DNA from: Candidatus Babelota bacterium
Lineage (GTDB): Bacteria > Babelota > Babeliae > Babelales > Babelaceae
Assembly: GCA_023379005.1 (NCBI GenBank)
Contig: JAMCTG010000002.1
Coordinates: forward strand, 14,333-78,332
Direction: 5' to 3'
DNA length: 64,000 nucleotides
The translations under genes were made by a program, and so were the position numbers. Below the pieces are notes generated by a model. The model ran no database searches. It saw only the letters and a list, made by a program, of their open reading frames with translations, and had not been told where the DNA came from. Every line of letters starts with the position of its first letter. Position 1 is the first letter of the stretch. Below are positions 11,722 through 55,723 of this stretch, in pieces.

Positions 11722-12329
11722 AGAAATTATTATTTATTTTATTTATCCCAAATTTTATTTTTTCAATGGAAGAAAAATAAGAAGCAAAAATTGAATTGCA
11801 GGAATTTCCAGCAGAGACATTATGCAATATAGTTGAATATCTTTTTGGCGGTTTAATAGATACCTCGAAGACTGTTCAACAAAATATTAGATTATTATTT
11901 AAAAGAAGAGCTGAATTAGCATCACTTAGCCCGTATTTCAAAAATTTAATAATGGAAACTTGTAAGCCTGAAGTTTTAAAAGCAATTGGTCAAGAATTAT
12001 CTAAGCTTCTTAGTTCTCCAAATAAAGCTGAATATTTTTTTAATCAAATTGCATTTAGAGAATCAATCTTAAAAGATTTTTCTCAAAATCAAGATGTTCT
12101 TAAAGCATTAACTTATGTGAAAGCTGAAAATGGATATACTTTGTTACATTTTTTTAACAATGATTTAGGTTTTGAAGCATTAAAAAAACTTGTTGATGCT
12201 GGTGCAGATGTTAATGCGAAAAATGAAGATGGTAAAACGCCACTTGACAACGTTTTAGGTTCTAAATATTTAGAAATCAAACAATATCTTATTAATCATG
12301 GAGCAAAATCCGGCAAGGATTTGCCATAA
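11718..12329 (+). pseudogene. F-box-like / ankyrin paralog (array member 3) interrupted by an in-frame TAA after the leader
   Basis: The ATG at 11718 (ATGA overlap with member 2) encodes MKKLLFILFIPNFIFSMEEK, then TAA at 11778-11780; the same frame continues EAKIELQEFPAETLCNIVEYLF...HGAKSGKDLP. The ORF track only recovers the 3' part, from a TTG at 11796. Confidence 0.6.
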
Positions 12330-12440
12330 ATTCATTTTGCAATTTTAAAATTTATTGAGCACTGTGAATGTCAATGTTTTCAAACAATTTATACATTTTT
12401 ATCTATTTTTTACATTACTATAAGATATTTAAGTCAATTA

Positions 12441-12470
12441 TTGGCTAATTGAATTGTGTCATTGTATAAT
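12441..12470 (+). promoter_or_regulatory. candidate sigma70-like promoter of ANK array member 4
   Basis: TTGGCT (12441-12446), 18-nt spacer, TATAAT (12465-12470); duplicated copy of the region upstream of member 1. Confidence 0.4.
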
Positions 12471-12502
12471 TAATAAATTATTTTAATATAAAAGGCTAAA
12501 TA

Positions 12503-13252
12503 ATGTTAAAAATTTATTTGATTCTTAGTTTAACTATTTTTCCCAGTTTAATTCTATCAATGAATTCGGATAAAATGGAAATTATTCCAGTAGAAGTTGT
12601 TGATTCTAATAAATCAGCTGAAGAAATTTTTCAAAAATTATTTACTCGTGGTGCAGATACAAGGTTTGGAAGAGAACGAATTTTGAAAGAAATAGGAAAT
12701 GAACTATCTAAAACATTATCTAAACATCTCGAACGAAAGAAAAGATTGAATAATTCCAAAGAATTAGTAAAAATAATTTCTAATTTTGCTGGTAATAGTG
12801 ACGTCATTGAAGCTTTGAAAGAAATAAAAAGTGACTCAGGGGAGACATTAATGCATGCTGCTGCTTTGTATGGGGATGTTAACGCAATAAAAATTTTAAA
12901 AGAAGCGGGAGCTAATGTTAATGCAAGCGCTGAGGACGGAAGAACGCCGCTACACGATGCTGCATGGAAGAACAATATTGAAGCAGTCAAAATTTTACTA
13001 GAATATGGTGCTAAGGTTAATGTAGATGATGTTGTGAAAACTACACCATTACATCTTGCAGCTATAGCAAAAAGTAATCCTGCTACGATACTTGATACAG
13101 TACATATTCTATTGTGTGCTGGGGCTAATATTAATGCACGAAATATTAATAGAAATACTCCATTAGATTTAGCGTATGCGTCTTATGGTTCTGAAGAATT
13201 AAAACAATATTTGATTGATCGTGGTGCTAAAACGTGGCGAGATTTGCCATAA
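12503..13252 (+). CDS. exported ankyrin-repeat protein (array member 4, F-box-like segment deleted)
   Basis: 249 aa; leader ...FPSLILS/M; aligns with members 1-3 but lacks the FPxEIKLEILAQSF block (MEIIPVEVV-DSNKSAEE); ANK repeats; tail RGAKTWRDLP. Confidence 0.8.
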   Translation: MLKIYLILSLTIFPSLILSMNSDKMEIIPVEVVDSNKSAEEIFQKLFTRGADTRFGRERILKEIGNELSKTLSKHLERKKRLNNSKELVKIISNFAGNSDVIEALKEIKSDSGETLMHAAALYGDVNAIKILKEAGANVNASAEDGRTPLHDAAWKNNIEAVKILLEYGAKVNVDDVVKTTPLHLAAIAKSNPATILDTVHILLCAGANINARNINRNTPLDLAYASYGSEELKQYLIDRGAKTWRDLP

Positions 13253-25378: not shown

Positions 25379-26239
25379 ATGTTCAAAAAATTAGTTGTTT
25401 CAATTTTACTTTCAAACCTTATTTTTAATTCTTATTCAATGGAAAGAAATGATATCGTCGAGTTACCACGTGATTACGATATTTGCCCTGTCCCAGATAA
25501 TAATCTCCCTGTTGCATTTGTAGGTTTTAATACTCCAGCTGAAACACAAATTGTCATTAAAAATAAAAGTTTGGAAGATCTCAGAACAATACTAAAAAAT
25601 ATAAAACAAAGAGGTTCATTTTATGACTTTGAACTTGTTCAATTGGCAAAATTTAATCCGGATGATCTTGGCAGAGAAATGTTCTTTTTTTTTAATAGTA
25701 AATGCGTAATAACTGCGTTAATTCAGTCTGGTGCAAATGTTAATTTAAGAGATGAAAATCAAAATACTCCTTTACACCTTTCCTTATCAGTAGCATCCGA
25801 CCGTTTTGGGGAAAATTATGATGTTGTATCAAAATATCTAATTTTTTATAAAGCAGATGTTAATGCCGAAAACGGTATTCGTACTACCCCTTTGCATATT
25901 GCTACATCAAGAAATGATCGGGATATTACGAAATTATTGTTGGCTGCAAAAGCAAACGTAAATGTTAGAAACAATGTTGACGCTACTCCTCTTCAAATTT
26001 CAATTAAGAATCAAAATGCCGCAATAGTTGAGATTCTTATTAAGGCTGGAGCAGATATTAATGCAAAAGACAAATTTGGTAGAACTCCTCTAGATTATGC
26101 AGAAGTGTTTGCAGGTGATTCAATTATAAAAATATTAAAGGAAAAAGGAGCTAAGCACGGAGAAGGTTTAATAACTAGAGATCTAGAAAACGAAGAAAAC
26201 CTAAAACTTGATGAATCTTATTTAAAAAAATATGGATGA
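25379..26239 (+). CDS. exported ankyrin-repeat protein
   Basis: 286 aa; AAGGAG SD; leader ...IFNSYS/M; ANK repeats (NQNTPLHLSL..., RTTPLHIATSRNDRDITKLLLAAKANVNVRN, DATPLQISIKNQNAAIVEILIKAGADINAKD, GRTPLDYA). Confidence 0.85.
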   Translation: MFKKLVVSILLSNLIFNSYSMERNDIVELPRDYDICPVPDNNLPVAFVGFNTPAETQIVIKNKSLEDLRTILKNIKQRGSFYDFELVQLAKFNPDDLGREMFFFFNSKCVITALIQSGANVNLRDENQNTPLHLSLSVASDRFGENYDVVSKYLIFYKADVNAENGIRTTPLHIATSRNDRDITKLLLAAKANVNVRNNVDATPLQISIKNQNAAIVEILIKAGADINAKDKFGRTPLDYAEVFAGDSIIKILKEKGAKHGEGLITRDLENEENLKLDESYLKKYG

Positions 26240-26260
26240 ACTTTAATTAAAAAAACAAGG

Positions 26261-26284
26261 GGGACATGGTCTAGACCGTGTCCC
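26261..26284 (+). terminator. hairpin terminator candidate
   Basis: gggacatgg / ccgtgtccc: 9-bp stem with one G-U pair, containing the GGTCTAGACC palindrome; the downstream tract is AT-rich, not a pure T-run. Confidence 0.4.
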
Positions 26285-26308
26285 AATTAATTATTTTAAG
26301 GACTTAGA

Positions 26309-26638
26309 GTGTTCAAAAAAATTTTTGCTTCAATATTATTATCTTTCAATTTTTTATGTGCTACTAATCACTTTGAAATTGAAAAGATAGAAATTCAAGT
26401 TTCCCCTAGAACAGCAAAAAAAAGAGATATTAATAGGATTTTTTCAGATTTGGATAATTTGCAAAACGAACATGATCAAGAAATAAAAAAACAGAAATTG
26501 CTGGATTTAATCACACAATTATCAAACTTTGAGGTGCAAGAACTAATAAATGGAATGGTGAATTATGCCAGCTATAATACTATTCATGAAGAAACTCAAA
26601 AATTATTTTATAAAATACTAGTAAAGTTAACAACGTAA
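26309..26638 (+). CDS. small exported hypothetical protein
   Basis: 109 aa; GTG start with AAGGA 6 nt upstream; hydrophobic leader MFKKIFASILLSFNFLCA. Confidence 0.4.
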   Translation: MFKKIFASILLSFNFLCATNHFEIEKIEIQVSPRTAKKRDINRIFSDLDNLQNEHDQEIKKQKLLDLITQLSNFEVQELINGMVNYASYNTIHEETQKLFYKILVKLTT

Positions 26639-26653
26639 AATAAAAGGATGTGG

Positions 26654-26977
26654 ATGTTAAAAAAATTAGTTTTAGCTTTGTTATTTTTTAATATTTTTTT
26701 TAATTCTTATGCGATGGAACCAAATTTAGATGACGAAGCTGTGGCTCAAATATATTACGAGACTGAAGCAAAAAAATTACTTTTCCAATTAAAACAAGTA
26801 AAAAAAGAAATTGATAAGTTCGAAGCAGAAAAATTACAAACCATTATTAGTAAGTTACATATTTCCAAACAAGGCTCAATTGGGTCTATTTTAAAAGTGC
26901 TGGGTAAAAAGTTAGTTTCTGATGCAGAAATTTTACCTTTATTTGTATCTATGATTGCACAAATGCAACAAGTTTAA
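26654..26977 (+). CDS. small exported hypothetical protein
   Basis: Start at the second ATG (26654, AAAGGA 5 nt upstream); leader MLKKLVLALLFFNIFFNSYA/M; helical, K/E-rich. Confidence 0.4.
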   Translation: MLKKLVLALLFFNIFFNSYAMEPNLDDEAVAQIYYETEAKKLLFQLKQVKKEIDKFEAEKLQTIISKLHISKQGSIGSILKVLGKKLVSDAEILPLFVSMIAQMQQV

Positions 26978-27344: not shown

Positions 27345-28601
27345 ATGAAAATAACCAAAATTTTAGCTAGAGAAATTTATGATTCTCGTGGTTGGCCTAC
27401 CGTGCAATGCGAAATAATTTTAAATAACCAATTTTCGGTTAAATCTAGTGTGCCTTCAGGAATATCAAAGGGGCCTTATGAAGCAATTGAATTACGAGAT
27501 GGTGGTAAACGTTTAAGTGGTCAAGGCGTTTTAAAAGCAATTGAAAATATTGAATTATTTTTAGCTCCGCAATTTTTGTCAAAAGAACCAAATGGTTTAG
27601 AAATGGATATGAAAATTTTGGCAGCAGATTCGACTCCAGACAAATCTAAGCTTGGAGCAAATGCAACTTTAGCTTTAAGTATGGCATTATACAAAGCTCA
27701 AGCATTTTCTGAAAATGTTGAACTTTATGAACTTATTGCTTGGGTTTTTGGTTCAGAAACTGTTTCATTGCCATTTCCTATGTTTAATTTAATCAATGGT
27801 GGTTTACATTCTAATAATAATTTAATTATTCAAGAATTTATGATCGTACCGATTGGTCTTTCCAACTTTAGAGCATCAATGGAAGTTGCGGTGAATGTAT
27901 ACCATGAATTGCAAAATATATTAAAAAAAATGAATCGCAATTTTGCAATTGGTGATGAAGGAGGAATTGCCTGTGGAATAGAAGACGATCTTGAAGCTTT
28001 AGAACTTTTGCAGAAAGCAATTGATACGGTTGTAAAAAATAGTGGTAGTAAATGTGTTATTGCTTTAGATATTTCTGCTGAGAGATTATATAATGCTTCA
28101 AAAAAAATCTATAATTGGGGTGGTGATAAATTATCTTCTGAAGAATTAATGTATGTTTATTTAAATTTATTAGAAAAATATCCTATTTATTCATTAGAAG
28201 ATCCATTTGCAAGTAATGATTTAGAATCTTGGGCAAAATTAAATAAAATAGCTGATGGCAAAATACAAATTGTTGGTGACGATATTTTTGCAACCAATAT
28301 GGCGCGAATAGTAAAAGGTCTTGAACAAAAGGCTGCAAATGCAACGATTGTAAAACCTAATCAGATAGGTACGATAACTGAAACTTTACAAACAATAAAA
28401 ATGTGCAAAGAAGTTGGGGTAAATACAATCGTTTCACATAGATCTGGAGAAACTGAAGACAATTTTATAGCAGATTTAGCTGTCGGAGCAAGTGCCGGCC
28501 AAATTAAAGCAGGTGGATGTGCTCGCGGTGAACGAATAGCCAAATATAATCGTTTACTTACAATTGAAGATAAATTAGCTCTTCATTTGCTTAATACTTG
28601 A
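27345..28601 (+). CDS. eno: enolase (phosphopyruvate hydratase)
   Basis: MKITKILAREIYDSRGWPTVQCEI..., IGDEGG, VGDDIF, KPNQIGTITET, SHRSGETED enolase signatures; start set at the ATG at 27345. Confidence 0.92.
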   Translation: MKITKILAREIYDSRGWPTVQCEIILNNQFSVKSSVPSGISKGPYEAIELRDGGKRLSGQGVLKAIENIELFLAPQFLSKEPNGLEMDMKILAADSTPDKSKLGANATLALSMALYKAQAFSENVELYELIAWVFGSETVSLPFPMFNLINGGLHSNNNLIIQEFMIVPIGLSNFRASMEVAVNVYHELQNILKKMNRNFAIGDEGGIACGIEDDLEALELLQKAIDTVVKNSGSKCVIALDISAERLYNASKKIYNWGGDKLSSEELMYVYLNLLEKYPIYSLEDPFASNDLESWAKLNKIADGKIQIVGDDIFATNMARIVKGLEQKAANATIVKPNQIGTITETLQTIKMCKEVGVNTIVSHRSGETEDNFIADLAVGASAGQIKAGGCARGERIAKYNRLLTIEDKLALHLLNT

Positions 28602-31112
28602 AAAAGGATCATCTTCCATCGCTATCAATTCTTTAACGCGTTCTTTTACGGGTATAGCGGCAGGCTTCCTTTTTGCTATTAAAGGAGGTTCTGGTATAAT
28701 TTTTTCTTCCTTCACAGTACATCCAAATTCAGAACGCTTTGCTTGTCTAGACCCAGTTGTTTTCCTAATATCTTCTCTAAAATGTTTTGGCTTAATTTCT
28801 GAATTTTTAGCATCATTCAAGTAACCATTTATAATGTCGCGATCTTGGCCATTATTAAAGAATAAATGAGTAATAGGATCGCGGTTGTTATTCAAAATAT
28901 CTGAATTATCAAGATCTTTATCAGAACTTCTAATTTTGTCTGTAGTATAACGGTCCATGCCTTTTCTTAATTTTGGATCTACAATTGTTGGACAAATAAA
29001 TACAACAAGATTATTTTTCACCACAGCCGTTTCAGTTTTACTAAATAACCAACCGATAATCGGAATTTGCCCTAAAATTGGGGTTTGTGTTCTTACTTCT
29101 TGTTCTGTATCTTGCATTAATCCGCCTATGGCTAATACGTTTCCACTTCCAAGATTAGCATTTGTCGTTACACTTCGAGTTCTTCTTGTAAAGTTTGTAG
29201 GATTAGCTGATTCATATTCGTCGATATTAATATCTATTTTTAAATTTAATCTATCTAGCGAACTTATTCTTGGCAAAACAGTTACTTGTATAGAAGCTGG
29301 AACGTCAACTTGTTTGATCGTAATTGTACCACCAGTTGGTGTTCCTTCCGCGTTACCTGTGGCACGTCTTATTGTGACCGATTCAACACTTGCTTTTTGG
29401 TTATTTGTCGTTACAAAAAAAGGATGAGACAAAACTTTAGTATTCAAATTTTCTTTTAAAATTTGTAATAATCCCCAAATTCCACTTCCATTATTATCAT
29501 TGAAAGCAAATATTAAAGATCCTGCACTTACATTTGGATTTGCAAGAATATTAGAAAGTGTAGCCGATGTTGCTACAGGAGCTAATAAATCTGTTGCTAA
29601 TGTTACTGGCTGAGGTGCTGGTGGTGCAGTGGTTATTGATCCTCCATAAACTGTGTTGACGTCAGTAATATGTGAAGCTAAGAAATTTGCTGTATTACCA
29701 CAATCTAATAATCCACCTTTATTTCTAACTGTACCAGCAATTAAATCATCATTTTCTTTTGTAATGTCTAAAATTAAAACTTCAAGAATAACTTGTGGTT
29801 GTGGTTTGTCTAATTTTTGAACTAATTCTTTAATTCTTAAGAAATCACTTTCTCTTGCAGCAATAATTAACCTATTTCCGCCCTGATAAACCTGTCCTTT
29901 TTGTGCTTCAGCCGGACCACCTGCAAGTTGAGTTCCTGTAACGGGCTCTGCTTCTCTTCTAGGTTTTGCAGCTTCAGGCTGAATTATAACACCCTCAAAA
30001 TATCTTTCAGGACCGCCAGCAGCTTCTTTAACCACTTGTTCTTGTCCTGTTCCAATGCTAACAATTCTTTGTAAAACTTTTGCAAATTCATCAGCATCGA
30101 GATATTGAAGATTAATATAATGCAAGATTGATTTTCCAGTTTCTGGAGCGACGTCAATATATTCAGCAATGAATTCTTTAATGCGTTGTACTGCCGTGTC
30201 TTTTCCAATAAGAATTAATCTGTTTAATCTTCCATAAGAAAAAACGCCTGTTCCGGAAGTAAAAAATAAATTACTTTCTGTTTTAGGCCCACTTCTTAAC
30301 GGAAAACGTGAATCTTGAGTTGGAGGAATTAATTCTTTAAATAATTTTACTATTGTATCTGCATTTGTATAAAAAAGCGGGATAACTTCTACCGCTTCTC
30401 TATATCCAGTATTATCAAGGGCTACAACTATTTTCATTGCACTTGCTATATTATTAGCATTGTCTGAGATAATTACTGCATTTGAACGAGGATCATATAA
30501 AAAAATACCTTCAGGTGTTAATATGTCCTTTAACATTGTATTTAAAGGATCTGCCGTATCCTTATTTTCTGGAACACGAATATTTTTTAAATAATATACG
30601 TATCGAATTTTTTGTTCAGTTGCAGGAATATTTTCAGGAGATACGTTAATAAAAAGAGGCATAGGTTCTCTTGAAACATTTGGATCTGTTTTTACAATTG
30701 AAAAAATTCCAGTTTCATCAACAGTTAAACTATAACCAGATAATGTTAAAAAAGTTAGAAGAAATTCCCAAGCTTTGTCTAAACTTATTTTTTCTGGATA
30801 GTTAAATGTAATTTTTTGGTTTATAGCTTGCGCACCTTGTGGCAAAATAATATTTAAATCTTTTTTTTCAGCAATCAAATTTATAATATTTATCAGATTT
30901 TCATCTGTAAAAGAAAAATCTATTAATATTTCTTTTCTTTTTCTTCTTTTTTTTGGTTTTCTATTTGTTTCGTTTTCAATAAGATTTTTGATTTTTAAGT
31001 CGGGCAAATTTTCTGCAATTCCAGAAATAACTGGCTTTTCCTCATTAGATTGAGAAAATAATAAAGAGCTGTCATATAAAAATATCACAAATAAAAGTAT
31101 AAATTTGATCAT
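28575..31112 (-). CDS. secretin A (GspD/PilQ family)
   Basis: 845 aa; leader ...SLLFS/Q; N0-like FSFTDENLINIINLIAEKKDLNIIL...ISLDKAWEFLLTFLTLSGY, N-domains, secretin core VLAIGGLMQDTEQEVRTQTPILGQIPIIGWLFS...LVVFICPTIV; C-terminal extension of about 130 aa; ATGA overlap with the upstream gene. Confidence 0.88.
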   Translation of the reverse strand: MIKFILLFVIFLYDSSLLFSQSNEEKPVISGIAENLPDLKIKNLIENETNRKPKKRRKRKEILIDFSFTDENLINIINLIAEKKDLNIILPQGAQAINQKITFNYPEKISLDKAWEFLLTFLTLSGYSLTVDETGIFSIVKTDPNVSREPMPLFINVSPENIPATEQKIRYVYYLKNIRVPENKDTADPLNTMLKDILTPEGIFLYDPRSNAVIISDNANNIASAMKIVVALDNTGYREAVEVIPLFYTNADTIVKLFKELIPPTQDSRFPLRSGPKTESNLFFTSGTGVFSYGRLNRLILIGKDTAVQRIKEFIAEYIDVAPETGKSILHYINLQYLDADEFAKVLQRIVSIGTGQEQVVKEAAGGPERYFEGVIIQPEAAKPRREAEPVTGTQLAGGPAEAQKGQVYQGGNRLIIAARESDFLRIKELVQKLDKPQPQVILEVLILDITKENDDLIAGTVRNKGGLLDCGNTANFLASHITDVNTVYGGSITTAPPAPQPVTLATDLLAPVATSATLSNILANPNVSAGSLIFAFNDNNGSGIWGLLQILKENLNTKVLSHPFFVTTNNQKASVESVTIRRATGNAEGTPTGGTITIKQVDVPASIQVTVLPRISSLDRLNLKIDINIDEYESANPTNFTRRTRSVTTNANLGSGNVLAIGGLMQDTEQEVRTQTPILGQIPIIGWLFSKTETAVVKNNLVVFICPTIVDPKLRKGMDRYTTDKIRSSDKDLDNSDILNNNRDPITHLFFNNGQDRDIINGYLNDAKNSEIKPKHFREDIRKTTGSRQAKRSEFGCTVKEEKIIPEPPLIAKRKPAAIPVKERVKELIAMEDDPFSSIKQMKS

Positions 31113-31666
31113 AATGTTGACTCTTTAGGTTTTAAAGTTGCAATTACTAAAGTCACATCAACTACATTCTTTTTAGGAACTTTTGTTATTATCAATTCCT
31201 TTGTATAAACTCTTTCATTTTGGTCTATTTTATACAAAAGATTACAAAGTTGCTGCATATTTAAATTTATAAAGCTAGAATCTAATTTTATTTCTGTATA
31301 ATCTTCATTTAAATCTTCTTCTAGAGGTTCTGGCTCTTTAGAAGTATTTGTACCTAAATCCAACTCTCTAATTAGATTTGCCATAAATTGTGCGATCTTA
31401 AAATTTTTGTCCTGCGCCAGTAGTTCATCAACTTCTCTTTTTTGTGCCTGAATTGATTCATACTCTTCTAAAATTTCTTTTACCTGTCTTCGTTGCTCAT
31501 TTATAGTTTTCAATTTTCTCAACAAGAAATTTGTATTACTATTTTGTCTCCAAATTAATAATCCTATCAACGTTAAAAATACAAGATTAAAAATTAATAA
31601 ATATTGATAAAATTGTCTTTTATCTAAATTTATTATTGTATCTTTTAATTTTGCAAAAGTTGCCAT
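31109..31666 (-). CDS. PilO/GspM-like bitopic inner-membrane assembly protein
   Basis: 185 aa; short cytoplasmic N-terminus, one TM (YLLIFNLVFLTLIGLLIW), a coiled segment, then a periplasmic domain; sits between a PilM/N-like gene and a secretin. Confidence 0.5.
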   Translation of the reverse strand: MATFAKLKDTIINLDKRQFYQYLLIFNLVFLTLIGLLIWRQNSNTNFLLRKLKTINEQRRQVKEILEEYESIQAQKREVDELLAQDKNFKIAQFMANLIRELDLGTNTSKEPEPLEEDLNEDYTEIKLDSSFINLNMQQLCNLLYKIDQNERVYTKELIITKVPKKNVVDVTLVIATLKPKESTL

Positions 31667-31675
31667 TTACGTACC

Positions 31676-33301
31676 CTAGCTTTCTTTATTTACCGTGATA
31701 GTAATATTAAAATTAGGCGTTTCCATTCTTGGGACATTATAAAAAGGTCCACTTTTTAATTCTTGTTCAAATATTGTTAATTCAGGAAAACCTTTTACTG
31801 ATCCTTCTAAATCTATTTTTGTTTCATTATCTACATTATAAATTCTAAGTTTTTTTAGCTGCAATCCTATTCCATCACGATCAATTCTTGAACTCAATTC
31901 TTGTAAATATTTCAAAAATGAATATCTATTTTTTGAAGATAACGCAAACCAAATGCTTTCTTCTTTTGCAATTTCAGTTTTTGATACATCAATAGTATCC
32001 TTTAGTGTATTTCTCTTTAATCTTTTTTTGTCTAATGCAAGTCGTCTATTCAATGCAGCAATCGCTTGCTTTTCAGATGCTTCAATTTCGTTTGTTAATC
32101 TTCTCGAATTTAAAAAACCATTTACAATAATAGCTATAAAAATGCACAGTAATAAAATTCCTGCAAATATTAATTGTTTATTTAAAAGAGAGGTTTGTAC
32201 TTTTAAGGAACGTTCTACATAAAGATTAAAATTTTCAGTCAAATCAGATTCTAATGCAGCTGCTAATGATGGTAAAAATGTGTTGGGAATTGTATTTTCG
32301 ACCTTAATGATAAGATTTCCATTATGGACCAATTTGTTTACATTAAATTTTTCAGTTTGAACATGTAATTTTTCTTGCATTAACTCTGGAATTCCATTTA
32401 TTTCAGAAAGGAACCCAGTCAATATAATTTTTGAAACATCATTTGTATCTTTAGTTTTTTCTTTATAAGCAATAAAAGTAAGATGAATTTCATTTAAAAT
32501 TTCTTCACATTCTTGCAAAATTGCTTGTCTTAGTTTTTCATGATCATTTTGTTCTGTTCCAAAACGTGAAATACGTTCAAAAACTTCTACAACATCCATT
32601 GAAAGTTTTGCAGACACTTTTTTAACAAGAGAATAAAAACCTTTTGGAATGACTCTTATGTATTTAATTTGTTTGTCTAAAATTAAAGCAATTCCGGTAG
32701 AATACATGTCAGAAACTATTAAAGCATTTAGCGGTTTTTCTAAGTATTTTGGATTATATTTTAATAGTCCTGCTAGTTCGATTATATCGACTGTAATTTT
32801 ATCAATTTTGATTTGCGCTGCTTCTATAATTGCTAAATTCTCTGCGATAACATCTTTTTTTACTATAACTACTAAGACATCAGATTTTTTTTCTGCCGGA
32901 TATTCTTTTGTGATTATGCAATCTATTACAGCTTGATCAAGTGTAAACGGTAATTGGCTTTCAATTTCAAACGGAACAATTTGTTTAATTTTGTTAAGAC
33001 CAATTATAGGCAATGTTAAATACAAAAATATTGCATTATTGCACGACAAACTTAAGTTTATTGCGTCATATTTAATTTTTTGTAAAAGTATTTTTAAAGC
33101 AGAAGAAGCTCTTTCTTGAAAAGGTATTTCAGTTTCTGGAGCAATAGTTTGTTCAATAATTTTTTCGATTGTTCTTTTATTGCCGCTGAACTGTACAACA
33201 GTGGCACGCACATTATTTTTACTAATTTCTATTCCAACTACTTTTTTACCAAAAATGTAATAGGAACCAATTTTTTCAGGTATGAAAATATTTTTTAACA
33301 T
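31676..33301 (-). CDS. PilM-PilN fusion-like / GspL-like assembly protein
   Basis: 541 aa; N-terminal actin-like PilM pattern (GKKVVGIEISKNNVRATVVQF...), one TM (LIFAGILLLCIFIAIIVNGFL) near residue 375, periplasmic C-terminal domain; overlaps the secretin B stop by 7 nt. Confidence 0.6.
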   Translation of the reverse strand: MLKNIFIPEKIGSYYIFGKKVVGIEISKNNVRATVVQFSGNKRTIEKIIEQTIAPETEIPFQERASSALKILLQKIKYDAINLSLSCNNAIFLYLTLPIIGLNKIKQIVPFEIESQLPFTLDQAVIDCIITKEYPAEKKSDVLVVIVKKDVIAENLAIIEAAQIKIDKITVDIIELAGLLKYNPKYLEKPLNALIVSDMYSTGIALILDKQIKYIRVIPKGFYSLVKKVSAKLSMDVVEVFERISRFGTEQNDHEKLRQAILQECEEILNEIHLTFIAYKEKTKDTNDVSKIILTGFLSEINGIPELMQEKLHVQTEKFNVNKLVHNGNLIIKVENTIPNTFLPSLAAALESDLTENFNLYVERSLKVQTSLLNKQLIFAGILLLCIFIAIIVNGFLNSRRLTNEIEASEKQAIAALNRRLALDKKRLKRNTLKDTIDVSKTEIAKEESIWFALSSKNRYSFLKYLQELSSRIDRDGIGLQLKKLRIYNVDNETKIDLEGSVKGFPELTIFEQELKSGPFYNVPRMETPNFNITITVNKES

Positions 33302-35811
33302 ACTAGTGCTTCCGGTGCTGGTTCTTCTTTTCCATTAATTAAATCACTAAGTCTTCTTTTTTTATTTGAATTTTTAATTTCAACTATTTTTTCGACGTGT
33401 TCAATTGGTACAGGAGCTGGAGTAGTTTCTGGTAATCGTTCTTGGTCTATTGGAGATGTACCTTCTTCTACAAAAAATCTTTCATCAAGATATCTACCTT
33501 TTTTGTTTGCAAATTTATCAAGCTCCGCTAACTCTTTATCTTTTGCAAATTGGTTACTATCTCTGAAGAACCATCTATAAATTGGGTCTCTTTGCTCATA
33601 TTTTCTACGCATACTGCGCAATAATGTTCTGCTTTCATTCATCTTGTCCGTCGTAAATTGTTCAGCAAATTCTTTTTGTGAAGGCATAATAATTTCTGGT
33701 GAAATTAAAATTAAAATACTACTTTTTGTTGCAATTTTTGTTTTGTCTTTAAATAACCAACCAATAATGGGGATGTCACCTAAAATGGGCCATTTGGTTT
33801 GTTCAGCAATTGTGCTAGTTCTTATTAATCCACCTAATGCAAGAACTTCATTATTTGCAACTAAAGCAGAAGTTGATACAGCTTTTTTGAGTCTGTTACC
33901 GCTAGTCGGGTCTGAATCTGTAAATTGTTCAAGAGTTACGTTTACATCTAAATAAACAGTACCATCATGATTAATTAAAGGAACAAGTGTTACTTTTAAA
34001 TTTGCAGGAAGATCTTCAATACTGTCTTGACTCGTGTTACCAACGACTTTAGCTGCTTGAACACGTCTTGTTTCACCTATAGATATTTGCGCAGGATATT
34101 TGTGTGTTGCGATCAAAAATGGATTTGCAACAATACTGACTTTTGTTATCGAATCTAAAATTCTAAGAAATCCTGCGACACCAAAAATATCATTTGCAAA
34201 TGATATTAATGTTGAACCAGCCTGCTGGCCAACTGCTAATGCAACCAAGTTGCCTAAAAGTCGTGTAGCTCCTGTTCCAGTTGGATTTTGAATTGCTGTT
34301 GAAATGCCTGTGTTTTGGAAATTAATATTTGGTATCCCAGTCCCACAACTAAAGCCTGGAACTTTGTCTCTCAATTGTGTACCAAGACTTTTTTGATTCG
34401 TAATATCCACATTTATTATCATAACTCTTATTGCAACTTGGGGTTGTTCAATATCTAATTCATTAATTAAATCTAATATTTTTTTAAAATCATCATAATC
34501 TGATTTTATAATTAAACGATTTCCTGATTTTTCTGGCGTAATTGAGACTTGTTTAAAATATTTTTCTCCTCCACGCACTCCTCCAACTTGGGCAGCAGGT
34601 GTTCCAGTTTGAAACTTTGTTGCTTCAGTTAAAATATTTGCAATCGTTTCAGCGTCAATAAATTTCAGTTGAATAATATTAAGTGGTGAGTAAGGAATAT
34701 CTAGTTCTTTATCTATTTTAGTTTTTATAAATTTTTCAACTCGGGCAATAGCTTCTCTGGTACCAAGGGCTATCAATGAATTGTTTTGTAAATAAGGAAT
34801 CAATCTTAGAGTTTCTGAAAAATAACTTACTGTTGGGGTTCTATGTGGAACAGGTCTCGGTCCATAAGGGGATTCAGGTGGACCTTTTTGAGTTAATGCT
34901 TTGTATAATTCTGCAACTTTATCTGCATCTGCATGTTTTAACCTTATAACCGATAACATTTCAGGCATAGTTGCTTTGTCGAGTTCTATAATGACTCTCA
35001 TTAAAGATTTAATATATCCTGCTTTGTCAGTGATTAAAATTGCTCGAAGATCTGGAAATTCAATTGTAGGTGAAGAAGTTGTACTACGCATTTGTTCTAA
35101 AACACTTTTAACTACAGGTATACTTGTGTTTTCAATGAAATATACATAACGAATTTTCATATCGTTATCCGGCAATAAATTTGGGTCAGTGCCGATATAA
35201 GTTGGAAGTGGAACTTTATTTGCCATTCCCCCGGTTTTGGGATCCGTATTTGTGATACGATAAACATTTTTTGCAGGGCCAGGAACTACAGCAAGTCCAG
35301 ACATATCTAAAAATGTTAAGAAAATATCCCAAACTTGTTTTTTTGTCATAGGCACATGGGATTTAAAAGTAATTTTATTTCCTAAAACATTTTTTCCGCC
35401 CGCAGGTGTAGGTTTAATTTCGTCGTCAGTAATAAATTGAATTTTATAATTTTTTTCAATGAATTGAACTAAATTTGAAAGATCTGCATCTTCAAAATAT
35501 AAAGTTAAAAATTCATTTTCTTCAGTAGTATCAAATGGCTTGGTGTAATCTGCCATGTATTGTTTAGAAGGGAAAGTTTCTTTTTTTGGAATTTCTTTTT
35601 TCTCTTCAAATTCTTGTTCTTCTTCTTTTTTAAGCTGAGCTAATTCTTGACCAATATCTTCTGGTTGAACTATTTTATGTTCAGTTTTTGATGGATCAAT
35701 AATGTCGGGAATAGAATTTATTTTTTTTGAATTAGCAACCTCTGCCGCATTCAAGTGCGTTAAAAATATCAAAAATATTATTAATGGAATTTGTTTTATA
35801 ATATTTTTCAT
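33295..35811 (-). CDS. gspD: secretin B (GspD family)
   Basis: 838 aa; leader; N0-like LYFEDADLSNLVQFIEKNYKIQFI...VWDIFLTFLDMSGL, secretin core VLALGGLIRTSTIAEQTKWPILGDIPIIGWLFKDKT...ILILISPEII; directly downstream of the GspC-like gene. Confidence 0.85.
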   Translation of the reverse strand: MKNIIKQIPLIIFLIFLTHLNAAEVANSKKINSIPDIIDPSKTEHKIVQPEDIGQELAQLKKEEEQEFEEKKEIPKKETFPSKQYMADYTKPFDTTEENEFLTLYFEDADLSNLVQFIEKNYKIQFITDDEIKPTPAGGKNVLGNKITFKSHVPMTKKQVWDIFLTFLDMSGLAVVPGPAKNVYRITNTDPKTGGMANKVPLPTYIGTDPNLLPDNDMKIRYVYFIENTSIPVVKSVLEQMRSTTSSPTIEFPDLRAILITDKAGYIKSLMRVIIELDKATMPEMLSVIRLKHADADKVAELYKALTQKGPPESPYGPRPVPHRTPTVSYFSETLRLIPYLQNNSLIALGTREAIARVEKFIKTKIDKELDIPYSPLNIIQLKFIDAETIANILTEATKFQTGTPAAQVGGVRGGEKYFKQVSITPEKSGNRLIIKSDYDDFKKILDLINELDIEQPQVAIRVMIINVDITNQKSLGTQLRDKVPGFSCGTGIPNINFQNTGISTAIQNPTGTGATRLLGNLVALAVGQQAGSTLISFANDIFGVAGFLRILDSITKVSIVANPFLIATHKYPAQISIGETRRVQAAKVVGNTSQDSIEDLPANLKVTLVPLINHDGTVYLDVNVTLEQFTDSDPTSGNRLKKAVSTSALVANNEVLALGGLIRTSTIAEQTKWPILGDIPIIGWLFKDKTKIATKSSILILISPEIIMPSQKEFAEQFTTDKMNESRTLLRSMRRKYEQRDPIYRWFFRDSNQFAKDKELAELDKFANKKGRYLDERFFVEEGTSPIDQERLPETTPAPVPIEHVEKIVEIKNSNKKRRLSDLINGKEEPAPEALVC

Positions 35812-35825
35812 TTTTTATTCCAGGT

Positions 35826-36974
35826 TTATTGCATATTTTTGAACAATCTTCCCTGAGAAGGTCTTGCTCCATGGTTCAACATAGCTTGTCTTTCATGTTG
35901 AGTAATATCCCTTATCAGAGGTTTAAAGGTCAACTGTTCATTCCTCAACATCTCTTTTTCTTTTTCTGTATCAATCATTTTTTTTATAACGCCATTTTTT
36001 TCTATGGTTGGTACAATTTCTTTTGTCTCTGTCTTTTGATCGGAAGATTTTTTCAAAAGTTGTAAATGGTATGTGATACTAGTTCTTTGGCCTAATCGAG
36101 CGAATTCAATTACAATCTTATCACCAACTGAAAGTTTTGTAACCTGGTTATAAACTTCAACACGGCTCTTAGTATCATTAATTCTCATTCCATTGATAGT
36201 TACAATAATGTCACCTGCTTGTAAACCAAGTGCGCTGCCGATAGATTGATTTGTCAATCTTCCAACTCTAACTCCAAGACTTTTACCTTTTCTAAATACA
36301 GTAGTTAAATCTAAAGCATCTATAAATTGAGCTAAGTTATTAATTCTTTCAGCAAAAGCATTTGGATCTACAATAAATTCAGTTGAAGAAATTGACTGTA
36401 TAACATTGGACCATGAACTTGAAGCAAGAGTATTAATTTCTGCCTGGGCATCAGTTTGATTTATAAATAATGATTCTTGTTGACCATTAGAGCGAATCAA
36501 AATTATTTTTTGGGGTAAAATTCTAAGTATGTAAGCATCTTCAATTTTATCATTTTGAGAATATAGTTTTTCTTCGTTAGTTTTTGTATTTTGTACAATT
36601 GCTTGTGCCATGCTTTCATTTGTTCCCATTATTATTCCCTTAAGTTTTAAAGCTAATGGCTCTAAAAATTGTGGTTTAGGAATTTCTTTTTCTTCAGGAA
36701 CAAATTTTGGAGTTGGAGGAACTGGGATTGGTGGAACTAAAGTTTTTACTTCTTCTTCAACAACTACAGGTTTTACATAAGTACCAAAAAGATCATCAGT
36801 AACTATTCTAGTGCAATCAACTTTTGCTGCTTCCTTTTTTATTTGTTTTGTGATAATTTCTGGTTCGATACGTGCACGTTTAGGAATTTGGACTTGTGAA
36901 AAAAATATAAAGACCAAGGTTGCCAAAAAAGTTGTCAGCAGAGAACTATTTAAAATCCACATTTGGCTTTGCAT
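35826..36974 (-). CDS. gspC: GspC-like protein (TM + HR/PilP-like domain + PDZ)
   Basis: 382 aa; N-terminal TM LLTTFLATLVFIFF; Pro-rich linker; LKLKGIIMGTNESMAQAIVQN...YILRILPQKIILI (HR-like); PDZ GVRVGRLTNQSIGSALGLQAGDIIVTINGMRIND. Confidence 0.65.
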   Translation of the reverse strand: MQSQMWILNSSLLTTFLATLVFIFFSQVQIPKRARIEPEIITKQIKKEAAKVDCTRIVTDDLFGTYVKPVVVEEEVKTLVPPIPVPPTPKFVPEEKEIPKPQFLEPLALKLKGIIMGTNESMAQAIVQNTKTNEEKLYSQNDKIEDAYILRILPQKIILIRSNGQQESLFINQTDAQAEINTLASSSWSNVIQSISSTEFIVDPNAFAERINNLAQFIDALDLTTVFRKGKSLGVRVGRLTNQSIGSALGLQAGDIIVTINGMRINDTKSRVEVYNQVTKLSVGDKIVIEFARLGQRTSITYHLQLLKKSSDQKTETKEIVPTIEKNGVIKKMIDTEKEKEMLRNEQLTFKPLIRDITQHERQAMLNHGARPSQGRLFKNMQ

Positions 36975-37891: not shown

Positions 37892-38209
37892 TTAGTCGTG
37901 ATAACCCAAAGAAGGCTTTAAATTTTTTGAATCAATATCAATGTATGTTGTTATAATATTTTTAAGTTTTATTACTTCTGCTCTTTTACCAGCTATAAAT
38001 AAAATATTTTTCTGTAGAGCTAAAATTACTAAAGATTCTAAATCTATTATGTAAATACTTACTGTCGCAGATTCTTTAATAAGGCTTGCAACATAATCAG
38101 AATCCACAAATTTAAGTTCTATGACTTCATTTATATTTGCATCACTTGAATGCTCCATACAATTAATAGAAATTAAGACAAATAAGCACATAAATAATAT
38201 TGATTTCAT
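37892..38209 (-). CDS. free-standing secretin N1-type (Secretin_N-like) domain mini-protein
   Basis: 105 aa; AAGGAG SD 7 nt upstream; leader MKSILFMCLFVLISINC/M; EVIELKFVDSDYVASLIKE...NILFIAGKRAEVIKLKNIITTYIDID parallels secretin A EVIPLFYTNADTIVKLFKE...NRLILIGKDTAVQRIKEFIAEYIDV. Confidence 0.55.
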   Translation of the reverse strand: MKSILFMCLFVLISINCMEHSSDANINEVIELKFVDSDYVASLIKESATVSIYIIDLESLVILALQKNILFIAGKRAEVIKLKNIITTYIDIDSKNLKPSLGYHD

Positions 38210-38213
38210 ATTT

Positions 38214-38705
38214 CTACTCCTTAATTGGATCTTCAGATAAATGTTCTAATTTTGAAATTAACAAATATTTTAATGCCTTATTGTGCCAATCGGAATTTCG
38301 TACTAAATCTAATGGTGTTTGTTCGCTTTTATCTTTCAAATTTACATTAATATCTTTATTATCCAAAAGTATCATTATCATTTTAAAATAAGAACTTTCA
38401 CCTGAATAAACTTTTAAACATGAACGAATTGCTAAATGTAATGGAGTTAATCCTTCATTATCCTGAACATTAATATTAATTCCTTGATTAATCAAATACT
38501 TAAATAAAATAATATTGGTTCTTACTATTGCCCAATGTAATGCCGTTCTAGAATTTTTATCAGTGTCATTAATCAGATTTATTTTATTTTCTAAATTAAA
38601 TCTGATTGTTTCTAAATTTCCATTTTTTGCATTTTCAAAAAAATCAAATTTCATGGCAAAAGAATTTAGATATAATGTGCTAAAAATAAAAAATATTTTT
38701 TTCAT
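38214..38705 (-). CDS. exported ankyrin-repeat protein
   Basis: 163 aa; leader ...LYLNSFA/M; ANK repeats (SRTALHWAIVRTNIILFKYLINQGININVQD, GLTPLHLAI..., EQTPLDLV). Confidence 0.8.
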   Translation of the reverse strand: MKKIFFIFSTLYLNSFAMKFDFFENAKNGNLETIRFNLENKINLINDTDKNSRTALHWAIVRTNIILFKYLINQGININVQDNEGLTPLHLAIRSCLKVYSGESSYFKMIMILLDNKDINVNLKDKSEQTPLDLVRNSDWHNKALKYLLISKLEHLSEDPIKE

Positions 38706-38723
38706 GCTTTTCTTGTTTTAAAA

Positions 38724-39134
38724 TTAATTTTCTGTTTGGGATTGTAATTTTTGATAAGTAAATTTTGGTGATGTTATTACTAGAATATTATTTTGAAAAT
38801 ACATAAAATATCCTTGCTTTATCATGAATGTGTAAACTCCATTCCATGCTTGGTCGATAGTTATCTTTTCAAGAAAATTAAATTTAACTTTCCAAGTTGG
38901 AATTAGTTCTTCTATATAAGTAATAATTCCAACCTTTGTGCATAATAATGAAAAAAAATCCAATAAATCTACATTATTAAGAGAAAATCCAATTAAAGTA
39001 TCTTGGTCTATTCCATTTAAATTTTCTTTTAATTCATCAAGTTGTTTTCTTGAATTAAGGTTTGCTATATCGTCTTGCATCGCAAATAAAAAAAGAAAAT
39101 TTAAAATGAAAAAGTTAAAAAAAACTTTTTTCAT
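38724..39134 (-). CDS. free-standing secretin N0-type domain mini-protein
   Basis: The ATG at 39134 forms an ATGA overlap with the moxR stop; leader MKKVFFNFFILNFLFLFA/M; LIGFSLNNVDLLDFFSLLCTKVGIITYIEE...KVKFNFLEKITIDQAWNGVYTFMIKQGYFMYFQNNILVITS aligns residue for residue with secretin A LIDFSFTDENLINIINLIAEKKDLNIILPQ...KITFNYPEKISLDKAWEFLLTFLTLSGYSLTVDETGIFSIV. Confidence 0.6.
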   Translation of the reverse strand: MKKVFFNFFILNFLFLFAMQDDIANLNSRKQLDELKENLNGIDQDTLIGFSLNNVDLLDFFSLLCTKVGIITYIEELIPTWKVKFNFLEKITIDQAWNGVYTFMIKQGYFMYFQNNILVITSPKFTYQKLQSQTEN

Positions 39135-40105
39135 GGGCAAGCAATTTTTTGTAAAATAGTTTTAATAATATGGTCTGAAGTAATATTTTCTGCTTCAGCT
39201 TCATAATTTAAAATTAATCTATGTCTTAAAATTGCAGGGCAAACAAATTTAACATCATCTGGGATTACAAAATTTCTTTTATTTAAAAATGCGTTTGCCT
39301 TTGCAGCATTGTGCAGAGCAATTGTAGCTCTTGGAGATACGCCATAGCTAATATATTTTTTTAAATTTGTAAGCCCAAAATTTTCTGGAGTTCTAGTTGC
39401 AAAAACTATATCAACAATATAATTGATTATTTTTTCATCAATATAAATCTGATTTACAATTTTTTGCGCATCAAATATTTCCGGTTTGTTTAAAACTTGT
39501 TTTATTTGTTCAAAGTCTAAATTTTTATGCAAAATTTCTCTCTCTTGCATAATGTTTGGATAACCAATAATCAGTTTGAACATAAATCTATCCACTTGTG
39601 CTTCGGGCAGTCTATATGTTCCTTCTTGTTCTAGTGGATTTTGTGTTGCAAAAACTAAAAATGGTTCTTCCAAAATATGTGTAGTTGAACCAATTGTTAC
39701 CTGATGTTCTTGCATTGCTTCTAAAAGTGCAGCCTGTACCTTTGCAGGCGCTCTATTAATTTCGTCAGCTAAAATTAAGTTAGCAAAAATTGGACCTTTT
39801 TTTGTTTCAAATTCTTGAGTTTTTGGATTATAAACAAGTGTACCAATTAAATCTGCCGGCAAAAGATCGGGCGTAAATTGAATGCGTTTAAATGAAAGAC
39901 CCATTGCTTTTGTAACTGCTTTTATTATTGTAGTTTTTGCAACTCCAGGAACACCTTCCAGTAAAATGTGTCCATTGCATAAAATAGCTAACAAAATAAA
40001 GTTGCATGTTTCAGTTTGCCCCACAACAATTTTATTAACTTCATTGGTTAATTGTTGGAAATTGTCACTAATTTTTTCAAGATAGTTTTGATCAATGGTA
40101 TTCAT
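39131..40105 (-). CDS. moxR: MoxR-family AAA+ ATPase
   Basis: VVGQTETCNFILLAILCNGHILLEGVPGVAKT (Walker A), ILADEINRAPAKVQAALLEAMQE (Walker B/sensor), FLVFATQNP; start set at MNTIDQ (40105), directly after the mlaF stop. Confidence 0.85.
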   Translation of the reverse strand: MNTIDQNYLEKISDNFQQLTNEVNKIVVGQTETCNFILLAILCNGHILLEGVPGVAKTTIIKAVTKAMGLSFKRIQFTPDLLPADLIGTLVYNPKTQEFETKKGPIFANLILADEINRAPAKVQAALLEAMQEHQVTIGSTTHILEEPFLVFATQNPLEQEGTYRLPEAQVDRFMFKLIIGYPNIMQEREILHKNLDFEQIKQVLNKPEIFDAQKIVNQIYIDEKIINYIVDIVFATRTPENFGLTNLKKYISYGVSPRATIALHNAAKANAFLNKRNFVIPDDVKFVCPAILRHRLILNYEAEAENITSDHIIKTILQKIACP

Positions 40106-40857
40106 ATTTTTTGACTTTCTGTTTGAATAGGTCCTACAGTTAAACCTCGAACAAATTGATAAATGTAAGGATTGTCTGATTGCCAAATAGTTGTAGCAGG
40201 TCCAAAATATCTAATTTTTCCCTGATACAATAGTGCAACATAATCAACATAATTGAAAACTTCAACATCATGAGATATTACAACTGACGTTATATTTAAA
40301 TTTTTTTGCATCGTGGACATTAGTTCATGAACAATTTTTGATGTTATCGGATCTAGACCCGATGTAGGTTCATCATACAAAATTATAGAAGGATTGTTAA
40401 TTAAAGTTCTTGCAATACCGACTCTTTTTTTCATTCCCCCAGAAAGTTCACTTGGATATTTATACAAAATATCTTCTGACAAATTAACCAAATTTAATTT
40501 ATTTTTAACTATTTCTAAAACTTCATTCTTATTTATGCCATCTTCCAATAAAGTAAGACCTACGTTTTCAAAAATATTTAAAGAATCTAAAAGAGCTGCA
40601 AATTGAAATACATAACCACATTTTTTAAAAACAAAATCTTTTTTATTTTCTTTTAATTTTGTAATATCTGTTCCATCAATAATAATTGAACCGGATGTTG
40701 GTTTTATAAGGCCCATAATTTGTTTTAAAAGAACAGATTTTCCTTCACCGGAACCACCAATTATGCACGTAATTTTACCCTTTGGAATTTTTAGATCAAT
40801 TCCATTAATGACAAAGCGATTATTAAATTCTTTTTTAAGATCAATTATTTCGATCAT
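40102..40857 (-). CDS. mlaF: MlaF-type ABC transporter ATP-binding protein
   Basis: 251 aa; Walker A GGSGEGKS, LSGGMKKRVGIARTL, ILYDEPTSGLDP; follows an MlaE-type permease. Confidence 0.8.
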   Translation of the reverse strand: MIEIIDLKKEFNNRFVINGIDLKIPKGKITCIIGGSGEGKSVLLKQIMGLIKPTSGSIIIDGTDITKLKENKKDFVFKKCGYVFQFAALLDSLNIFENVGLTLLEDGINKNEVLEIVKNKLNLVNLSEDILYKYPSELSGGMKKRVGIARTLINNPSIILYDEPTSGLDPITSKIVHELMSTMQKNLNITSVVISHDVEVFNYVDYVALLYQGKIRYFGPATTIWQSDNPYIYQFVRGLTVGPIQTESQKI

Positions 40858-45884: not shown

Positions 45885-46085
45885 TTACATTTGCTCTTCG
45901 TATTTTTGTTGATTTTTTTGAGCTTCATCTATTTCTTTTTGTGTTCTGTGTACTGAGCCCTCAGGAACCTTTCCATCAGCGATATATTCTGCAGTTGGAA
46001 TCTCCCCTGTGGAATTATTCGTTTGATACATCGCCATTAAATTCGCAGAAACAATCAATGAAATTATTAATAATAACTTCTTCAT
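45885..46085 (-). CDS. small exported hypothetical protein
   Basis: 66 aa; AAAGGAG SD; leader MKKLLLIISLIVSANLMA/M. Confidence 0.45.
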   Translation of the reverse strand: MKKLLLIISLIVSANLMAMYQTNNSTGEIPTAEYIADGKVPEGSVHRTQKEIDEAQKNQQKYEEQM

Positions 46086-54919: not shown

Positions 54920-55723
54920 TTACTCAATTAACTGAGACAAAAAATCTATTTTATTAATTAATTCAGATATTTCCTTGCTGTGATATGGTATAGACTTTAA
55001 AAATTTTAGTGCTTGTTCATAATTATTTTGTTCATAATATATGAGTCCTATTTGGTAATTTGCATCCACTTGAAACCATAAAAGAAGTTCTAAATGCTTA
55101 GACGCTGCACTTTTTAAATAAAAAAGAGCTTCATCATATTTTTTTAAATTGACAAAAAACATCCCCAAATGATATTCCGCTTCTTTTTTGCTCGATAAAT
55201 CTCTGGTGCACCGAGCTAATTGGAAATATTTTAATGCTTCATCATATTTGTTTTGCTGTTCATAAATTCTTGCAATAAATAATTGAGAATAACCTTTTTT
55301 AAAATTCTCAAAATCAGTATTTCCGGATTCTGACTCAATTGCTTTAAATAAAGTTATCGCTTTCTCATAATCTTTTGCCAAAAATAAATTTAATGCCTCG
55401 TTATATTTATTAGATAAATCATCTAATTTAGATTTTAATCTAGCTTTATTTTCATTTCTTCTATTTGCACGTTTTATATTGCCTGGTATTTCATCTTCTA
55501 ATTGTCGTTTGCGTTTATCTTTTTCAGTTTCAACAACTTTTTGCTTTTCCTGTTCTTTTTCGATTGTTGGAAATAATTGCGTATCTAGAGATTGAGATGA
55601 CTGTTTCATCATATCTAATATTTCTTGAATTTCCTTTTCTTGCTCGCTAAACGGTTCAGATTCCATTGCTAATGTAAAAGAATTTATGCATGTAAACATA
55701 AGTATATATTTTATTTTATTCAT
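54920..55723 (-). CDS. exported TPR-repeat protein
   Basis: 267 aa; leader ...INSFTLA/M; repeated Y-x-x-A-x-x-x-F/Y motifs (YEKAITLFKAI, YDEALKYFQLA, YDEALFYLKSA, YEQALKFLKSI). Confidence 0.65.
   Translation of the reverse strand: MNKIKYILMFTCINSFTLAMESEPFSEQEKEIQEILDMMKQSSQSLDTQLFPTIEKEQEKQKVVETEKDKRKRQLEDEIPGNIKRANRRNENKARLKSKLDDLSNKYNEALNLFLAKDYEKAITLFKAIESESGNTDFENFKKGYSQLFIARIYEQQNKYDEALKYFQLARCTRDLSSKKEAEYHLGMFFVNLKKYDEALFYLKSAASKHLELLLWFQVDANYQIGLIYYEQNNYEQALKFLKSIPYHSKEISELINKIDFLSQLIE

Follow-up and report, generated by a model that had tools for sequence, protein, structure and literature searches.

Within the stretch of DNA analysed here (the window: 64,000 nucleotides (nt) of JAMCTG010000002.1, an 88-kb contig of an uncultured Candidatus Dependentiae metagenome-assembled genome, or MAG), two short open reading frames (ORFs; locus tags M1446_00745 and M1446_00735) lie upstream of a gspC-like gene and its two-secretin operon. 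The longer, of 136 amino acids (aa), is a genuine lone secretin N0 domain of the secretin-A type, carrying its own leader; the shorter, of 105 aa, is probably an N1-type Secretin_N domain, an assignment for which support is moderate. We refer to the two as ‘mini-N0’ and ‘mini-N1’. Both are intact, lineage-specific genes—inserted, together with two ankyrin-repeat genes, at a junction that is conserved across the phylum—and not debris left in situ by a broken secretin.

Taking mini-N0 first, the domain spans approximately residues 45–122 (window ~38769–39002), with the ORF stopping 14 residues beyond its end. By BLASTP it aligns with residues 63–151 of the resident secretin A at 28% identity (E=3e-7), and the hhalign comparison with an alignment of secretin A returns a probability of 92.9% (E=3.8e-7). 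Scanned across 1487 stop-to-stop ORFs, taken from the window and six related loci, a hidden Markov model (HMM) of the secretin-A N0 domain finds mini-N0 at E=1.5e-8 as its sole match outside the secretins themselves; the type is also distinguished, as the A-type N0 HMM matches mini-N0 whereas the B-type does not. HMM scores for the ORF lie at 30–33 bits, with 33.4 bits from a 53-sequence profile built on N0 domains of Dependentiae secretin A; of ~9400 ORFs searched by phmmer, the best 30 matches all fall in N0 domains, in each case of an ORF occupying the secretin-A position of its locus. The earlier note on this DNA, made from the letters and ORF translations, had already read the 136-aa ORF as a lone N0 domain, and that reading is borne out.

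Structure prediction, one of the checks that the earlier note proposed, gives secretin N0 and N1/N2 folds for the two proteins when alignment-guided AlphaFold2 (AF2) models are compared by Foldseek. For mature mini-N0 the model (predicted local distance difference test score, pLDDT, of 75) begins with a linker helix, followed by a β-α-β-β-α-β-β arrangement (strands, E, and helices, H: E32–37, H38–49, E52–55, E63–67, H74–87, E91–95, E98–102); its top Foldseek matches are the N0 domains of PilQ, LspD, GspD and InvG (top entries 4ar0, 7pmp, 4jtm and 3ezj), at a probability of 1.00 and E ~1e-3. We take this predicted model as corroborating the sequence evidence, not as an independent proof of it.

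Mini-N1 is the more difficult case. Its compact, Secretin_N-type domain covers approximately residues 28–94 (window ~37928–38128), and its pairwise matches to secretin domains are weak. A pooled Dependentiae Secretin_N HMM nonetheless finds it at E=8.4e-6, once more as the sole non-secretin match among the 1487 ORFs, with the match split into two pieces around an α1–β2 loop that is ~23 residues shorter than in Dependentiae secretin domains. Compared singly with the six periplasmic domains of the two secretins, it fits the third best (residues 238–322 of secretin A, hhalign probability 73.8%, E=2.9e-5, along with its counterpart in secretin B). Mini-N1 also retains the Asn of QKNILFIAG and a terminal Asp, which are both invariant columns in a 31-sequence alignment of the domain. 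The earlier note’s description of a lone N1-type domain thus stands as regards the Secretin_N-type fold and profile, and fails in one respect: the best match occupies the N2 position and is not N1 proper. The AF2 model (pLDDT 80.6) is predicted to fold as β-α-β-β-α (E8–14, H20–33, E44–48, E52–58, H59–73), with N1/N2 of GspD (3oss_D, 3ezj), a MxiD N0–N1 fragment and a KH domain at the top of the Foldseek matches; the last of these fits the only match that mini-N1 makes in a curated library, a sub-threshold one to Pfam KH_PARP14_2 (E=0.003–0.006, 17 bits against a cut-off of 27). At the tail of the protein (residues 95–105) hhalign carries the alignment on into the next secretin domain, as far as its first strand, and HMMER does not; given this disagreement, we leave a continuation of mini-N1 into that domain as weak.

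A number of observations weigh against these assignments, and against a functional role for the genes, and are best considered together. Pfam and NCBIfam models detect neither ORF, such that the curated-family HMM search proposed in the earlier note came back empty: mini-N0 has no match at E<=1 in the two libraries, nor at E<=10 when the mature domain is used, and mini-N1, apart from the sub-threshold KH match, hits no family in NCBIfam or in Pfam, PF03958 included (E<=10, mature domain). A PDB sequence search with either mini-protein likewise returns nothing at E<=10. The Pfam N0 model does, however, appear insensitive in this phylum, because the resident and genuine secretin A also falls beneath its threshold (18.9 bits against a cut-off of 27). 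For mini-N1, the score with the 53-sequence profile is a modest 20.1 bits. Both AF2 models were guided by alignments containing secretin domains (drawn from window and database sequences only), and hence lean towards those folds. Finally, both proteins are orphans: a word-indexed search of 5.8 billion clustered proteins finds each of them only as itself, and HMMER, run with mature mini-N0 over the full set of 1.84 billion cluster representatives, likewise finds only the protein itself; mini-N1 finds nothing in JGI metagenome contigs, and there is no free-standing mini-gene among the 7891 ORFs of 73 related loci. With no orthologue to compare, conservation, synteny, co-occurrence and the ratio of non-synonymous to synonymous substitution (dN/dS) cannot back a functional role, and we regard the mini-genes as a lineage-specific curiosity of one genome, not as a general system.

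That the two ORFs are genes is indicated by their start signals and by their codon usage. The ATG of mini-N0 at 39134, within CCCATGAAAA, overlaps the TGA stop of moxR (as ATGA), and that of mini-N1 at 38209 is preceded by an AAGGAG Shine–Dalgarno motif 7 nt upstream, overlapping the TAG stop of the preceding ankyrin gene; both signals had been pointed out in the earlier note, and they, together with its coordinates, are confirmed from the sequence. In the annotated frame the codon-usage log-likelihood of the two ORFs is 0.33 and 0.48 bits/codon, to be compared with 0.41 for secG, 0.40 for a conserved 185-aa gene of the same operon and 0.02–0.09 for antisense ORFs of the region. With the local base composition, one stop in ~10 codons would be expected, and the chance of a run free of stops is then ~3e-5 over 105 codons and ~1e-6 over 136. 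As both frames have stayed open over these lengths, whilst sharing at most ~27–31% identity with any secretin domain, they have most likely been kept by selection, barring recent acquisition from a divergent donor. Domain boundaries are clean, and the inserted genes have neither spare DNA nor any further remnant between them; they are separated from each other by 18, 4 and 21 nt and from gspC by 104 nt.

Each protein begins with its own leader, as the earlier note had also observed. In mini-N0 this comprises residues 1–19, MKKVFFNFFILNFLFLFA, followed by Met, with the putative cut placed immediately before that residue and a predicted linker helix connecting it to the domain; in mini-N1 it comprises residues 1–17, MKSILFMCLFVLISINC, again followed by Met at the cut, and sits directly ahead of the domain. 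The type is a familiar one locally, being shared by ~25 of the 58 window genes (for example at 12–2713, 10031–13252, 25379–26977, 45885–46085 and 54920–55723): M-K/N-K, a hydrophobic stretch, a small residue (S, A, G or C) and then Met, as in ...LHSM, ...LFSM or ...SYAM. This small-residue–Met ending may reflect a cleavage-site pattern typical of the lineage, or may mark the secreted proteome. Judged from their sequences, neither mini-protein looks like a lipoprotein: the leader of mini-N0, ending FLFLFA before MQDD, contains no Cys and no lipobox, and that of mini-N1, ending LISINC before MEH, has a Cys at the point where other local leaders have A, S or G before the Met, and, by inspection, an atypical Asn at position -1 of the would-be lipobox.

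The alternation of the mini-genes with two leader-bearing ankyrin genes, upstream of gspC, is as first described (Table 1). The two ankyrin proteins are paralogous (36% identity over 105 aa, E=2e-13). As no terminator-like site is seen on the minus strand from 41462 to 35700, and hence none between moxR and gspC, the inserted genes and the two-secretin operon probably share a transcript.

Table 1. Coordinates of the inserted genes and of the operon around them, in minus-strand order; the full order on that strand is tpiA, secG, mlaE, mlaF, moxR, 136-aa ORF, ANK1, 105-aa ORF, ANK2, gspC-like, secretin B, PilM-like, 185-aa gene, secretin A.
Feature	Position in window	Strand	Evidence and remarks
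moxR, AAA_3 ATPase, upstream border of insertion	39131..40186	(-)	Pfam AAA_3 E=2e-64
mini-N0 gene, 136 aa	38724..39134	(-)	Leader, lone N0 domain
ANK1, leader-bearing ankyrin-repeat protein, 163 aa	38214..38705	(-)	Pfam Ank_4 E=1.8e-18, also Ank_2
mini-N1 gene, 105 aa	37892..38209	(-)	Leader, probable compact Secretin_N-type domain
ANK2, leader-bearing ankyrin-repeat protein, 263 aa	37079..37870	(-)	Pfam Ank_2 E=3.8e-19
GspC-like (T2SSC/HR domain + PDZ), downstream border of insertion	35826..36974	(-)	Pfam T2SSC E=1.3e-9, PDZ
Secretin B (N0, Secretin_N domains, secretin domain)	33295..35811	(-)	Pfam; 120 Dependentiae orthologues listed
PilM/GspL-like assembly protein	31676..33301	(-)	Pfam PilM_2 E=8.8e-10; kept in every relative examined
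Conserved 185-aa membrane protein	31109..31666	(-)	185–186 aa gene in 5 distinct relatives examined
Secretin A	28575..31112	(-)	Pfam; N0 residues 63–150, N2-position domain 242–322; its family is the nearest to both mini-proteins

The surroundings of these genes were compared with five distinct loci reached through secretin-B orthologues, and with the 73 loci already mentioned; the latter come from GTDB species representatives and were obtained by searching genome contigs with an alignment (yielding the 7891 further ORFs), a contig search with the single secretin-B sequence having returned nothing. The order of the core operon is common to the five relatives and the 73 loci, and flanking synteny is intact, with moxR located just upstream of gspC and secretin B, and often preceded by mlaE and mlaF (loci L008–L075). 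Both genes were located in ~50 loci, and in ~46 of these moxR lies only 4–305 nt from gspC. Since the two genes abut in nearly all other Dependentiae loci, the four genes between them here constitute a lineage-specific insertion. Of the comparisons that the earlier note had suggested, synteny was informative, placing the insertion in a conserved junction, whilst conservation yielded no orthologue in the collections searched.

The same comparison deals with the possibility that the mini-genes are what is left of a third secretin that formerly stood at this site. No relative has a secretin at the moxR–gspC junction, and we reject the idea on grounds of synteny, as the earlier note had argued from the gene signals. 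Split secretins do occur elsewhere, and provide a useful comparison: in L016 (17028–19200), L072 and L078 short ORFs also match the N0 and Secretin_N profiles. These, however, are overlapping frameshift pieces in different frames, found at the normal secretin positions, jointly of secretin length and with no intervening genes, whereas the mini-genes of the window have intact ankyrin genes between them and each start with a leader. The operons of L072 and L078 contain frameshifts throughout. As a separate observation, secretin A is followed in some Dependentiae by a third, tandem secretin (e.g. L006 18003–20354, from Babela massiliensis, and L016 17028–19200); the L016 copy is broken into four overlapping frameshift pieces, reflecting either a pseudogene or a long-read assembly error.

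As to where the mini-genes came from, their order and orientation—N0, then N2-type—mirror the order of domains in secretin A, which suggests descent from an incomplete secretin copy; the most likely source of both is a partly duplicated 5′ region of a secretin-A-like gene. Such a piece would have landed in the moxR–gspC junction along with a duplicated ankyrin gene, and may then have been split by insertion or duplication of the ankyrin gene, each secretin fragment keeping or gaining a leader and start signals of its own. Scored against secretin-A N0 domains from ~30 species, mini-N0 reaches 13–28 bits, and the resident one, at 25.6 bits, is not uniquely the best. A recent copy of the resident secretin A is therefore unsupported, and mini-N0 is either old or fast-evolving. 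DNA repeats around the mini-genes amount to short, AT-rich, leader-level similarities.

What might two such proteins do? N1-type modules build periplasmic rings, and PilP docks on the secretin N0 domain. N0 domains are equally the docking site of other HR-domain proteins, as described for GspC–GspD (PMC3169554) and for GspB/OutB–OutD (PMC9239104). The GspC-like protein encoded immediately downstream (NCBIfam GspC_delta, E=4e-27, yet under the cut-off of that model) is a candidate docking partner for N0 domains. If exported by the Sec route, free mini-N0 would display an HR-domain-binding surface (for GspC, GspB or PilP) in the periplasm, and mini-N1 a ring-building β-α-β-β-α module; docked on GspC or on the secretin N-rings as accessory or decoy subunits, they could modulate the coupling of platform to channel. 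The reading towards which we lean, tentatively and at slightly less than an even chance, is that the mini-proteins serve the two-secretin system as accessory or decoy subunits in the periplasm; the capping, gating and adaptor roles envisaged in the earlier note are pure inference, and what ties the mini-genes to the ankyrin proteins is their adjacency. The secretin-A-like gene order and the effector-like ankyrin neighbours would be accommodated equally well were the mini-proteins a by-product or secreted cargo, which counts against our preference.

The first of these alternatives holds that the genes are near-neutral leftovers of a partial secretin duplication, perhaps translated, without a role and not yet deleted. 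It would explain why N0 is followed by an N2-type domain in a single orientation, as in secretin A, why both genes are orphans limited to one MAG, and, were the tail alignment of hhalign (not HMMER) to be trusted, why mini-N1 appears to run on into the next secretin domain; the junction, moreover, takes unrelated lineage-specific genes in two other lineages. Non-functional DNA, on the other hand, tends to be deleted from small parasite genomes, and a leftover sits uneasily with frames open over 105 and 136 codons at so low an identity to secretins, with clean domain boundaries unaccompanied by any remnant, and with a leader just ahead of each domain, a Shine–Dalgarno motif or coupled start and gene-like codon usage. 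We consider leftovers possible but doubtful.

A stronger version of the accessory reading, in which ring domains have been spun off to act in trans—mini-N0 titrating or bridging the GspC/HR platform, mini-N1 inserting into or capping the N-rings, with a possible link to export of the ankyrin proteins—goes beyond what we would tentatively propose, and we judge it unlikely.

Alternatively, the mini-proteins may themselves be secreted cargo or effectors like their ankyrin neighbours, the N0 and KH-like N1 folds having been re-used against host targets. The leader, of a type shared with many putative secreted proteins of the window, is in keeping with this, as are the alternation with leader-bearing ankyrin genes and the presence at the same junction, in L001 and L023, of leader-bearing effector-like genes that include a RING-finger protein; ankyrin proteins are also deemed host-interaction factors in the phylum (PMC4776705). 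Set against it, the mini-proteins lack a host-targeting motif, the only curated match of mini-N1 is the sub-threshold KH hit described above, and the nearest kin of both are domains of the cell’s own machinery, making partners within that machinery the more economical targets. Cargo therefore strikes us as unlikely. Least of all can we credit chance, that is, spurious ORFs of fortuitous resemblance in AT-rich DNA or an assembly artefact: the want of Pfam and NCBIfam matches and the single MAG speak for it, and it is largely refuted by lineage profiles that pick exactly these two of 1487 ORFs and no free-standing mini-gene among 7891 more, by intact flanking synteny and frame-specific codon usage, and by a Pfam N0 model that passes over even a genuine secretin A.

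Returning to the preferred accessory or decoy role, comparison with known systems indicates what is, and is not, unusual here. Mini-N0 shares sequence-level homology and the same predicted topology with the N0 domains of the secretins GspD, PilQ and InvG (PF21305 type_II_gspD_N0, STN family); unlike them, it is not the N-terminus of a channel, its ORF ending at residue 136 with an ankyrin gene next. Mini-N1 has in common with the N1/N2/N3 domains of secretins (PF03958, resembling ring-building motifs and the KH fold) the β-α-β-β-α arrangement, and differs from them in being free-standing, with its own leader, a shortened loop and a score below Pfam detection. N1-like ring-building motifs are known, too, in the ring proteins of type III secretion and of sporulation. 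The earlier note’s statement that N0/N1 folds are confined to secretins and TonB-dependent receptors is too strong, given that DotD of Legionella’s type IVB secretion system, Dot/Icm, and VirB7 XAC2622 of the Xanthomonas type IV secretion system (T4SS) are small, free-standing lipoproteins of N0 fold, each forming part of a machine for transport at the outer membrane (PMC2951367, PMC3093366). Phage baseplate proteins and VgrG likewise contain N0-like folds (PMC3093366). With DotD and VirB7, between which no significant sequence similarity is reported (PMC3093366), mini-N0 shares small size, export and an N0 fold as its only globular part; indeed, a chain of the Dot/Icm outer-membrane complex (7mud_Ad) ranks 37th among its Foldseek matches. 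It departs from both in having neither lipobox nor Cys, in lying in an operon of secretins like those of type II secretion systems and type IV pili, and in being kin to secretin N0 at the level of sequence; T4SS genes, the VirB9 and DotC/DotH partners included, are absent from the scanned neighbours, which are moxR, gspC, the two secretins and a PilM-like gene. Distinctive here, then, are domains that are sequence-level kin of the genome’s own secretin domains, do not resemble lipoproteins and are encoded inside the secretin operon.

Two copies of gspD are a core feature of the phylum (PMC4776705). If the mini-proteins are made and bind this machinery, they would be, to our knowledge, the first soluble, trans-acting secretin vestibule domains; they could provide a naturally occurring means of examining how contacts of N0 and N1 link the inner-membrane platform with the channel, and ring domains acting in trans would give Dependentiae a novel route to regulate or remodel their two-secretin apparatus. 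Their importance is limited by their presence in only one MAG. Even if without a role, they make a clean case in which domain-sized pieces of a machinery gene have given rise to new exported genes in a reduced parasite genome.

Insertions at the moxR–gspC junction occur in three lineages: that of the window, that of its nearest relative (L001/L007, with a secretin B 58% identical) and that of L023. The junction of L001/L007 holds four leader-bearing genes unrelated to the window mini-genes, and the inserts of L001/L007 and L023, which are unrelated and leader-bearing, include a RING-finger protein and a tandem pair. Secreted-protein genes thus seem to have been recruited repeatedly beside secretin genes. 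To describe the junction as a general insertion hotspot would be only partly true, with other loci free of inserts besides larger gaps in L077 and L078, both of which are full of frameshifts. At the mlaF–moxR or moxR–gspC junctions, inserts were located at 6171–8634 in L001, 3963–7671 in L002 and 3607–6751 in L023; the inserted orphans include the RING-finger protein, a tandem pair of 321/336 aa and four proteins of 189–253 aa (three of them ~230–250 aa). The small-residue–Met ending seen in leaders of the window is also frequent among the leader-bearing inserts of L001 and L002.

Some smaller points concern neighbouring genes. That MoxR is linked to the secretin operon throughout the phylum may hint that it takes part in assembling the secretion system. 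The longest ORF for moxR uses a TTG start at 40186 and shares 85 nt with mlaF (40102–40857, minus strand); translation probably begins downstream of that TTG, e.g. at the Met of MNTIDQNYLEK, residue 28. The 185-aa operon protein is without a significant Pfam or NCBIfam match, as are, for Pfam at E<=0.01, two large leader-bearing ORFs of the minus strand (4470–7226, 918 aa; 3192–4448, 418 aa). At 12–2713, again on the minus strand, five tandem ORFs of 164–196 aa carry near-identical leaders (MN.INKLF...S[FL][SGT]M) and look like a tandemly expanded exported family.

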